Positions 2,496 through 2,670 of a DNA stretch of 64,000 nucleotides are shown in pieces. Origin of the DNA: Escherichia coli (GTDB lineage Bacteria > Pseudomonadota > Gammaproteobacteria > Enterobacterales > Enterobacteriaceae). A program made the position numbers and the translations under genes. Below the pieces are notes generated by a model. It was not told the origin of the DNA, did no database searches, and saw nothing but the letters and a program-made list of their open reading frames with translations. Within the stretch, counting starts at the first letter, position 1. The number at the start of each line of letters is the position of its first letter. The stretch lies in assembly GCF_001677475.2 (NCBI RefSeq), contig NZ_CP015229.1. One strand, 5' to 3'.

Positions 2496-2622
2496 CGAGT
2501 AAAACTCATTAGGATTATCAGAATTCGGACAATGCATTGCAAAAATGACATACAAAGAGAGATGTGTGCAGGTACTTAGCCGCGAGGGGCATGGCGAAGC
2601 CATACAGAAAGCACCAGCATTC

Positions 2623-2670
2623 AGAACTCCTGTGAAAGCGGCATAGTGCCGCCTGCTCAGGAGTTTTACT
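2623..2670 (+). terminator. Nested hairpin (agaactcctg ... caggagtttt with inner gcggca/tgccgc stem) followed by short T-run; possible terminator of the island gene
   Basis: Inverted repeats read directly from sequence; T-tract is short so intrinsic terminator status is uncertain. Confidence 0.3.

Follow-up and report, generated by a model that had tools for sequence, protein, structure and literature searches.

The fabY-fdhE interval of the window

The sequence studied here, referred to as the window, is a 64-kb stretch of E. coli DNA. Near its left end, fabY (yiiD) and fdhE delimit an interval that is hypervariable among the genomes compared. In the window, this interval carries a large gene, called here the island gene, a compound hairpin and the remains of other genes (Table 1). 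Compared with E. coli genomes, identity reaches 98.9% over the neighbouring fdhE-fdoG stretch and 96.3% over the island region, which places this chromosome in the E. coli/Shigella clade. Searches of the literature on yiiD/yiiE and on NadS returned nothing relevant.

No sequence match to the island gene was obtained in Pfam, NCBIfam or the PDB. Its product contains a C-K-S-A-K-D-R-T motif (2175-2198) of the CX5R(T) phosphatase type, which we take to resemble the active site of SopB/IpgD. In E. coli RefSeq records, homologues of this gene are split and labelled 'hypothetical protein, incomplete' and 'transposase', which looks like a mis-annotation. On the other side of the hairpin, the PIN-domain (VapC) gene is intact and overlaps the end of yiiF, so that yiiF and vapC form a complete VapBC-type pair in the window; K-12 has yiiF without vapC. 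The regions upstream of yiiE and yiiF (3035-3105 and 3475-3545) are paralogous (AACTGCAAC...CTGGAAAACGYCTCGCAAAAA...), which may be explained by a duplication of the promoter/operator regions that serve two ribbon-helix-helix genes. An AT-rich inverted repeat upstream of yiiE (2929-2991, CATTCAGAttatgc...aTCTCTGAATAT) could be an operator; its weak match to a discarded covariance model (R1, see below; 14.5 bits, E 1.1) is probably due to chance. Pfam has no match to the minus-strand open reading frames of the region (among them 2518-2700), which were treated as spurious.

Table 1. Features of the fabY-fdhE interval, in window coordinates (L004, locus of strains without the island gene; L005, locus of E. 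coli STO_Bone2; P1, outer helix of the hairpin)
Feature	Position	Strand	Basis and remarks
fabY/yiiD	ends 265		
Island gene, 604 aa	681-2495	+	
Decayed nadS-like (HTH antitoxin) 3′ end	2533-2586	+	alignments to L004 and L005; left limit approximate
Upstream ORF (uORF), 14 codons, MAKPYRKHQHSELL*	2591-2635	+	homologous to longer phage/metagenome uORFs
Compound hairpin	2623-2667	+	folds, rank in the window, covariation in homologous leaders, covariance-model match
Shine-Dalgarno (SD) sequence AGGAG of ORF1	2659-2663	+	sequence; wholly paired in the 3′ strand of P1
ORF1 remnant (phrog_4499 family)	2671-2721	+	ATG and first ~17 codons; aligned to L005 ORF1
392-bp deletion junction	2721-2722	.	392-column gap relative to L005
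ORF2 3′-end remnant	2722-2829	+	alignment to L005; right limit approximate
yiiE	3171-3389		
yiiF	3607-3849		
PIN/VapC gene	3843-4223		
fdhE	4260-5189	minus	

A compound hairpin downstream of the island gene

On the plus strand, the hairpin reads AGAACTCCTG tgaaa GCGGCA tag TGCCGC ctgct CAGGAGTTTT. The outer helix, P1, pairs 2623-2632 with 2658-2667 through 10 base pairs, one of which is G-U. The inner helix, P2, pairs 2638-2643 with 2647-2652 through six perfect pairs (GCGGCA-UAG-UGCCGC), the loop being formed by 2644-2646. An earlier note on this DNA had described a nested hairpin about 125 nt past the island-gene stop codon and followed by a short T-run. The stop codon lies at 2493-2495 and the hairpin begins 127 nt later, in agreement with this description. 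Folding of the plus strand from 2600 to 2690 with RNAfold gives exactly the nested structure, at -30.3 kcal/mol. Shuffled versions of the same segment reach -18.7 ± 2.9 kcal/mol on average (z = -4.0), and none of the 200 shuffles is as stable. The minus strand of the segment folds similarly (-32.0 kcal/mol, z = -2.9). Folded alone, the 45-nt hairpin has an energy of -24.2 kcal/mol. When 45-nt segments are slid along the entire window on either strand, only 0.07% of them are as stable, and the hairpin ranks about 10th to 14th among the structured loci of the 64 kb. The compound hairpin is no chance feature of the sequence.

The T-run is indeed short. It consists of just TTTT (2664-2667), and all four bases belong to P1. 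Upstream of it in the same strand of P1, the AGGAG sequence is separated by 7 nt from the ATG of ORF1. Rfam, searched with positions 1-8000 of the window at E ≤ 10, has no match at the hairpin.

Known classes of elements were also compared with the hairpin and rejected. Concerning integron attC sites, the ends of the two arms, TCAGAAC and GTTTTAC, fit neither the RYYYAAC nor the GTTRRRY core, and no integrase is found nearby. Concerning thermometers of the fourU or ROSE type, the SD sequence pairs with CUCCU within a structure of -24 kcal/mol, and not with UUUU or U(U/C)GCU in a weak helix rich in mismatches.

History of the locus in Escherichia and relatives

In Salmonella, Citrobacter and Kluyvera, the gene order is fabY, an alpha/beta-hydrolase gene on the minus strand, a RelE/HigB-like gene together with nadS, and fdhE. 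In these genera, the gap between nadS and fdhE is of about 45 nt and contains unrelated short hairpins. Because the gap is so short in these three genera, the DNA found in Escherichia between the nadS stop codon and fdhE is regarded as an Escherichia-specific insertion. The compound hairpin is located ~37 nt inside the left edge of this insertion. The idea that it might be the ancestral terminator between nadS and fdhE was ruled out, since the hairpins of Salmonella, Citrobacter and Kluyvera are unrelated to it.

Within E. coli, the surroundings of the hairpin vary. In strains that do not carry the island gene (L004), the same hairpin sequence follows the antitoxin gene nadS, as identified by NCBIfam NF041265. 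In L005, the hairpin is followed at once by intact ORF1 and ORF2 and the junction reads cAGGAGttttactATG. K-12 has lost everything from codon ~26 of the island gene to the tail of ORF2, including the hairpin, and keeps only the promoter region and the first ~26 codons of the island gene.

In the window, ...GTGTGCAGGTACTTAGCCGCGAGGGGC aligns with the end of nadS, ...GTGCTGCAGGCACTTAACCGTTAGAGGC, in L004 and L005. Homology to the nadS-bearing strains begins in the last ~20-50 nt of nadS (~2533-2586), the position of the former nadS stop codon being 2584-2586. These alignments place the true junction between the island DNA and the older locus at ~2533-2586, that is, about 40-90 nt upstream of the hairpin. 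As judged from the same comparisons, the hairpin did not come in with the island gene, now its upstream neighbour, and predates it. Its place 127 nt after the island gene is most likely an accident of later rearrangements.

Of the three proposals of the earlier note, which also named an RNA processing site, two may be considered here. A terminator built for the island gene is not retained, because the hairpin predates that position and is followed by an SD sequence and a start codon at the right spacing. As to a remnant of an insertion junction, the second half of the proposal fails, the junction being located upstream, in the end of nadS, whereas the hairpin does appear to be a remnant, namely that of a gene leader, as argued below; this proposal comes closest of the three. 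In annotations, it should thus be labelled neither as a terminator of the island gene nor as an insertion scar.

ORF1 and ORF2, a lost gene pair

Where the locus is complete, ORF1 codes for a basic, Cys-rich protein of 70 aa and is sited between nadS and yiiE together with ORF2 (92 aa). The intact ORF1-ORF2 module occurs in 1270 of 5426 complete E. coli genomes. In the window, ORF1 carries a premature TAA at codon 7 (2689-2691), where intact copies have GAA. In addition, the spacer and the greater part of both ORF1 and ORF2 are missing through a 392-bp deletion, which fuses codon ~17 of ORF1 to the tail of ORF2. The same deletion is found in L001, L002, L004 and L006. E. coli N3 and O157:H7 are strains of the window type, in which the hairpin is present.

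ORF1 has no match in Pfam or NCBIfam and no sequence match in the PDB, and its AlphaFold model, made of four helices with a pLDDT of 79.7, has no Foldseek match in the PDB. It does match phrog_4499, a family of unknown function. At E ≤ 1e-3, an exhaustive HMMER search gathered 219 cluster representatives, which share the motif RAxRRHHxxRLKxxR...TPCxCSCWMCGNxR...G..QE. Relatives are also present in IMG/VR (121) and in 440 phage records, mostly of T5-like phages and all annotated as hypothetical. These matches identify ORF1 as a genuine protein family. In three further lineages (the L040 group, L103 and L107), an ORF1 homologue is likewise followed by a homologue of ORF2 (41-45% identity), so that the pair can be considered a conserved module.

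The leader of ORF1 homologues

The nested hairpin is also present just upstream of ORF1 homologues (47-58% identity) located in unrelated phage and metagenome contexts. In these leaders, the outer helix, with the SD sequence in its 3′ strand, surrounds a GC-rich GCGG...CCGC stem, often closed by a GAAG loop. The SD sequence is within the 3′ strand of P1 in 16 of the 16 leaders aligned, and the start codon follows 5-9 nt downstream.

Plain MAFFT followed by RNAalifold recovered just the base of the inner helix. For this reason, the structural alignment of the 16 leaders was built by hand, each row being N-padded and verified as a true substring. Pair counts in this alignment are inflated because it was fitted to the structure on the 3′ side, and it represents only ~10 independent lineages; read with these reservations, 81.1% of the cells are paired, versus 64.4% in shuffles (none of 500 as high), and the proportion falls to 39-48% when the partners are slid by 1-3 columns. 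Changes on both sides are observed in 22 of the 27 pairs. The covariation score is 0.455, compared with 0.19 in shuffles and at most 0.115 with slid partners.

A less circular test used a covariance model, R2, trained on nine leaders, all from phages or metagenomes and none from E. coli. Its best match in the whole window is 2614-2673, at full length, in register and ending at the ATG, with 22.8 bits (E 0.0036, a rough value). The runner-up, with 15.9 bits and E 0.21, is a perfect hairpin at 61207-61248 (AAACTCCCGG...CCGGGAGTTT), which is probably an ordinary bidirectional terminator whose ACUCC/GGAGU arms agree with those of the leader by chance. The fetched loci, 306 kb in total, gave 18 matches at E ≤ 1, all of them at leaders of ORF1 homologues. 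The E. coli copies score just 17-23 bits because of their short inner helix. Another model, R1, made from the N-padded alignment, gave the window hairpin 12.2 bits (E 4.6) in a misaligned match and was replaced by R2. Rfam has no family at the leaders of 17 homologous loci (E ≤ 1).

In the close subfamily, opening of the ribosome-binding site of ORF1 homologues is calculated to cost 11-12 kcal/mol, versus a median of 5.0 for control genes of the same loci; for the whole ORF1 family, the median is 7.6 (p = 0.015). The nested leader is absent from more distant members of the family, for example those of T5-like phages and L108. It was also observed, on contigs of T5-like and other phages (L039, L071), that the ORF1-family genes of T5-like phages sit among tRNA genes and have a simpler, different anti-SD/SD hairpin (UCUCC...AGGAGA) in place of the nested leader.

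Some drift is seen in lineages with the deletion, since L002, L004, L014 and L015 show indels or substitutions in the inner helix. This helix is identical in all the fetched copies with intact genes, a small sample whose members are not independent.

A small upstream ORF within the leader

The leader also contains a small upstream ORF, with the consensus MRK..(H/Y)SE(L/Y)P..RRS.EG.., which begins ~20 nt 5′ of the hairpin. In the phage versions, the uORF traverses the hairpin and ends 26-97 nt beyond the start of ORF1. Between the fifth codon before the H/Y-S-E motif and the ORF1 start, its frame has no stop codon in 11 of 11 non-E. coli lineages, compared with 18 and 15 stop codons in the two alternative frames. 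Every E. coli copy has a TGA at codon 15 of the uORF, a codon which reads CGA in a relative; beyond it, the frame stays open until a TGA that overlaps the ATG of ORF1 (cTATGAcc). In the window, the last codons of the uORF make up the 5′ strand of P1, and its TGA falls in the 5′ internal loop.

The second codon specifies Arg through AGA, CGT or CGG, a variation which indicates selection on the peptide, and synonymous-type changes are found elsewhere (TCA/TCC, GAA/GAG, CAT/CAC). We infer that the uORF is translated. Conservation of the 5′ strand of the hairpin is confounded with this coding constraint. One may even imagine that the conservation is that of the uORF coding sequence alone, the hairpin being incidental, as the open frame and the synonymous-type changes would allow. 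Such a reading is nevertheless highly improbable. Compensatory changes in the inner helix modify the peptide non-conservatively, for instance from SHEGVA to TYEDMS, and their occurrence despite the altered peptide indicates that the RNA is also under selection. Moreover, the pairing is lost with slid partners, and in E. coli the uORF ends before the inner helix, which is still kept.

As a separate observation, a small hairpin (2588-2604) directly follows the former nadS stop codon and includes the start codon of the uORF. Its register differs between the window (ATGGC-gaa-GCCAT) and the second copy of L005 described below (GGCAT-ggtt-ATGCC).

A probable fossil leader for translational control

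From the above data, the compound hairpin is probably the conserved 5′ leader of ORF1, a small phage-type gene now lost, whose ribosome-binding site it would have masked; it would persist as a fossil. In intact copies, P1 pairs the anti-SD stretch CUCCU with the SD sequence of ORF1 and encloses the GC-rich inner hairpin. In the proposed mechanism, this locking of the SD sequence in the outer helix would hide the ribosome-binding site and so control translation. The outer helix would be melted by ribosomes that read the uORF, and ORF1 would be translated mainly on this occasion, by translational coupling. Thus, the structure is expected to repress ORF1 translation and translation of the uORF is expected to relieve this repression. 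In E. coli, where the uORF stops at codon 15, coupling would proceed by termination and re-initiation, or was perhaps already impaired.

Since ORF1 has been destroyed by a nonsense codon and by the 392-bp deletion, the hairpin of the window is to be viewed as a fossil. It is not followed by an intact ORF1-family gene, and such a gene is intact in L005-type strains. In terms of the homology described above, the window copy is a relic of a member of the leader family and not a working member.

In lineages that lost ORF1, the hairpin is nearly intact and its outer stem persists. This opens the possibility of a second function, for instance termination of nadS or island-gene transcripts. A present-day role as intrinsic terminator or 3′-end stabiliser would not conflict with a leader origin; its target would be the island gene in the window and the operon of the RelE/HigB-like toxin and nadS in strains without the island gene. 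We consider this role rather unlikely, although several features are in its favour. As in a Rho-independent terminator, a strong GC-cored stem-loop is followed by U residues (UUUUACUAU) downstream of a gene; no other terminator-like site is found on the plus strand from the island gene to yiiE; and in L005, a perfected copy of the hairpin stands between the convergent island gene and hydrolase gene. However, a consensus terminator scan makes no call at the hairpin. A terminator is expected to have about five or more unpaired U in the 8 nt past its stem; here, the U-run is limited to four residues, which are paired with AGAA within P1 in the minimum-free-energy fold (tail UUUUACUA), and the perfected copy of L005 has no U-run on either strand. 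In the homologous leaders, the sequences past the outer helix (for example AUUACCC, UUGAAAA, AGAACC and UAACGAU) have no conserved U-run, whereas the pairing and the SD sequence are kept, which argues against termination as the conserved function. Finally, unlike a terminator, the hairpin is followed by an SD sequence and an ATG at canonical spacing, and it predates its upstream neighbour; in Salmonella, Citrobacter and Kluyvera, the small hairpins that nadS precedes are unrelated to it.

The preferred reading, a leader masking the ribosome-binding site of ORF1, corresponds to mechanistically conventional translation control, of an undescribed family. Coupling through hairpins that mask a ribosome-binding site is established between the coat gene and the replicase and lysis genes of the RNA phage MS2, as well as in many overlapping bacterial gene pairs. 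As in these systems, the downstream SD sequence is locked in a helix located inside the upstream frame, and this frame terminates at or past the downstream start, the ancestral frame of E. coli ending in the TGA that overlaps the ATG of ORF1. In contrast, the upstream cistron of the leader is not a full gene but a tiny ORF (14-50 codons) whose N-terminal peptide is conserved, and the helix holds a second conserved GC-rich hairpin; coupling is here proposed from the sequence. Translation attenuation by leader peptides, as in the ermC, cat and cmlA leaders, is similar in that the hairpin which sequesters the SD sequence of the regulated gene is preceded by a short, conserved leader ORF. Here, however, no anti-sequestor pairing was found in the leader, there is no known inducer or stalling motif, and the leader ORF of phrog_4499 genes mostly traverses the hairpin instead of stopping before it.

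A more elaborate scheme may be envisaged, in which the conserved leader, with its uORF peptide, SD-masking outer helix and inner GCGG...CCGC hairpin, would be a new kind of sensing or autoregulatory switch for a widespread phage gene pair; this we consider unlikely. In a first version, the Arg-rich N-terminus of ORF1 (RAxRRHHxxRLKxxR) may bind the inner hairpin and thereby set its own translation. It is reminiscent of the N-protein peptides, which bind boxB hairpins. In a second version, the conserved uORF peptide may stall ribosomes in response to a signal. Under either version, the hairpin of the window would be the fossil of a switch of this kind.

Returning to the leader as a masking device, its recognition has several consequences. 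The hairpin is the mark of a two-gene module of phage origin, now decayed, and is of use in reconstructing how the fabY-fdhE gap was built up and eroded in Escherichia. In front of phrog_4499 genes, it points to an undescribed conserved leader, absent from Rfam, in which an RNA structure and a small upstream ORF are combined. Since no function is known for phrog_4499, a family with hundreds of representatives among T5-like and other phages, the leader, as a defined regulatory element, would offer an experimental handle on the timing of the expression of these genes.

Copies of the hairpin and rearrangements of the locus

The hairpin might alternatively be a DNA-level element, either a palindromic site or hotspot of recombination or a scar left by the insertion. 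Rearrangement end-points do cluster near it. Furthermore, ~330 genomes contain two copies, as direct repeats of ~85 bp, and the left flank of the hairpin in the window matches the upstream copy while its right flank matches the downstream copy. This arrangement fits a deletion between the two repeats. Yet a role as a DNA element is very unlikely. The hairpin occurs once in the 64-kb window and once or twice per E. coli genome, always at this locus, a distribution that also led to the rejection of dispersed repeats of the REP/BIME type. Apart from one chance match, the pattern of its left arm is confined to Escherichia among 100,044 species genomes. The structure accompanies ORF1 homologues into unrelated genomes with covariation of the RNA type, including G-U pairs, and the real island junction is ~40-90 nt upstream.

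The left-arm pattern also matched a contig of a Micromonospora craterilacus assembly (L015, NZ_POTY01000570.1), of 445 bp and 0.76x coverage. This contig is almost certainly a contamination by E. coli fabY-yiiE intergenic DNA.

The second copy of the ~330 E. coli genomes, exemplified by E. coli STO_Bone2 (L005, 748-788), is located between the convergent island and alpha/beta-hydrolase genes. It is a perfect 19-bp palindrome, AACTCCTGTGAAAGCGGCA tag TGCCGCTTTCACAGGAGTT, and is joined to the 3′ end of the hydrolase gene at a GGAGTT microhomology. Quasipalindrome 'correction' mutations arising by template switching occur in E. coli. The second copy looks like the product of such an event, an imperfect palindrome having apparently been turned into a perfect one at a rearrangement junction; this differs from the case of the window in that it concerns a paralogous copy in other strains.
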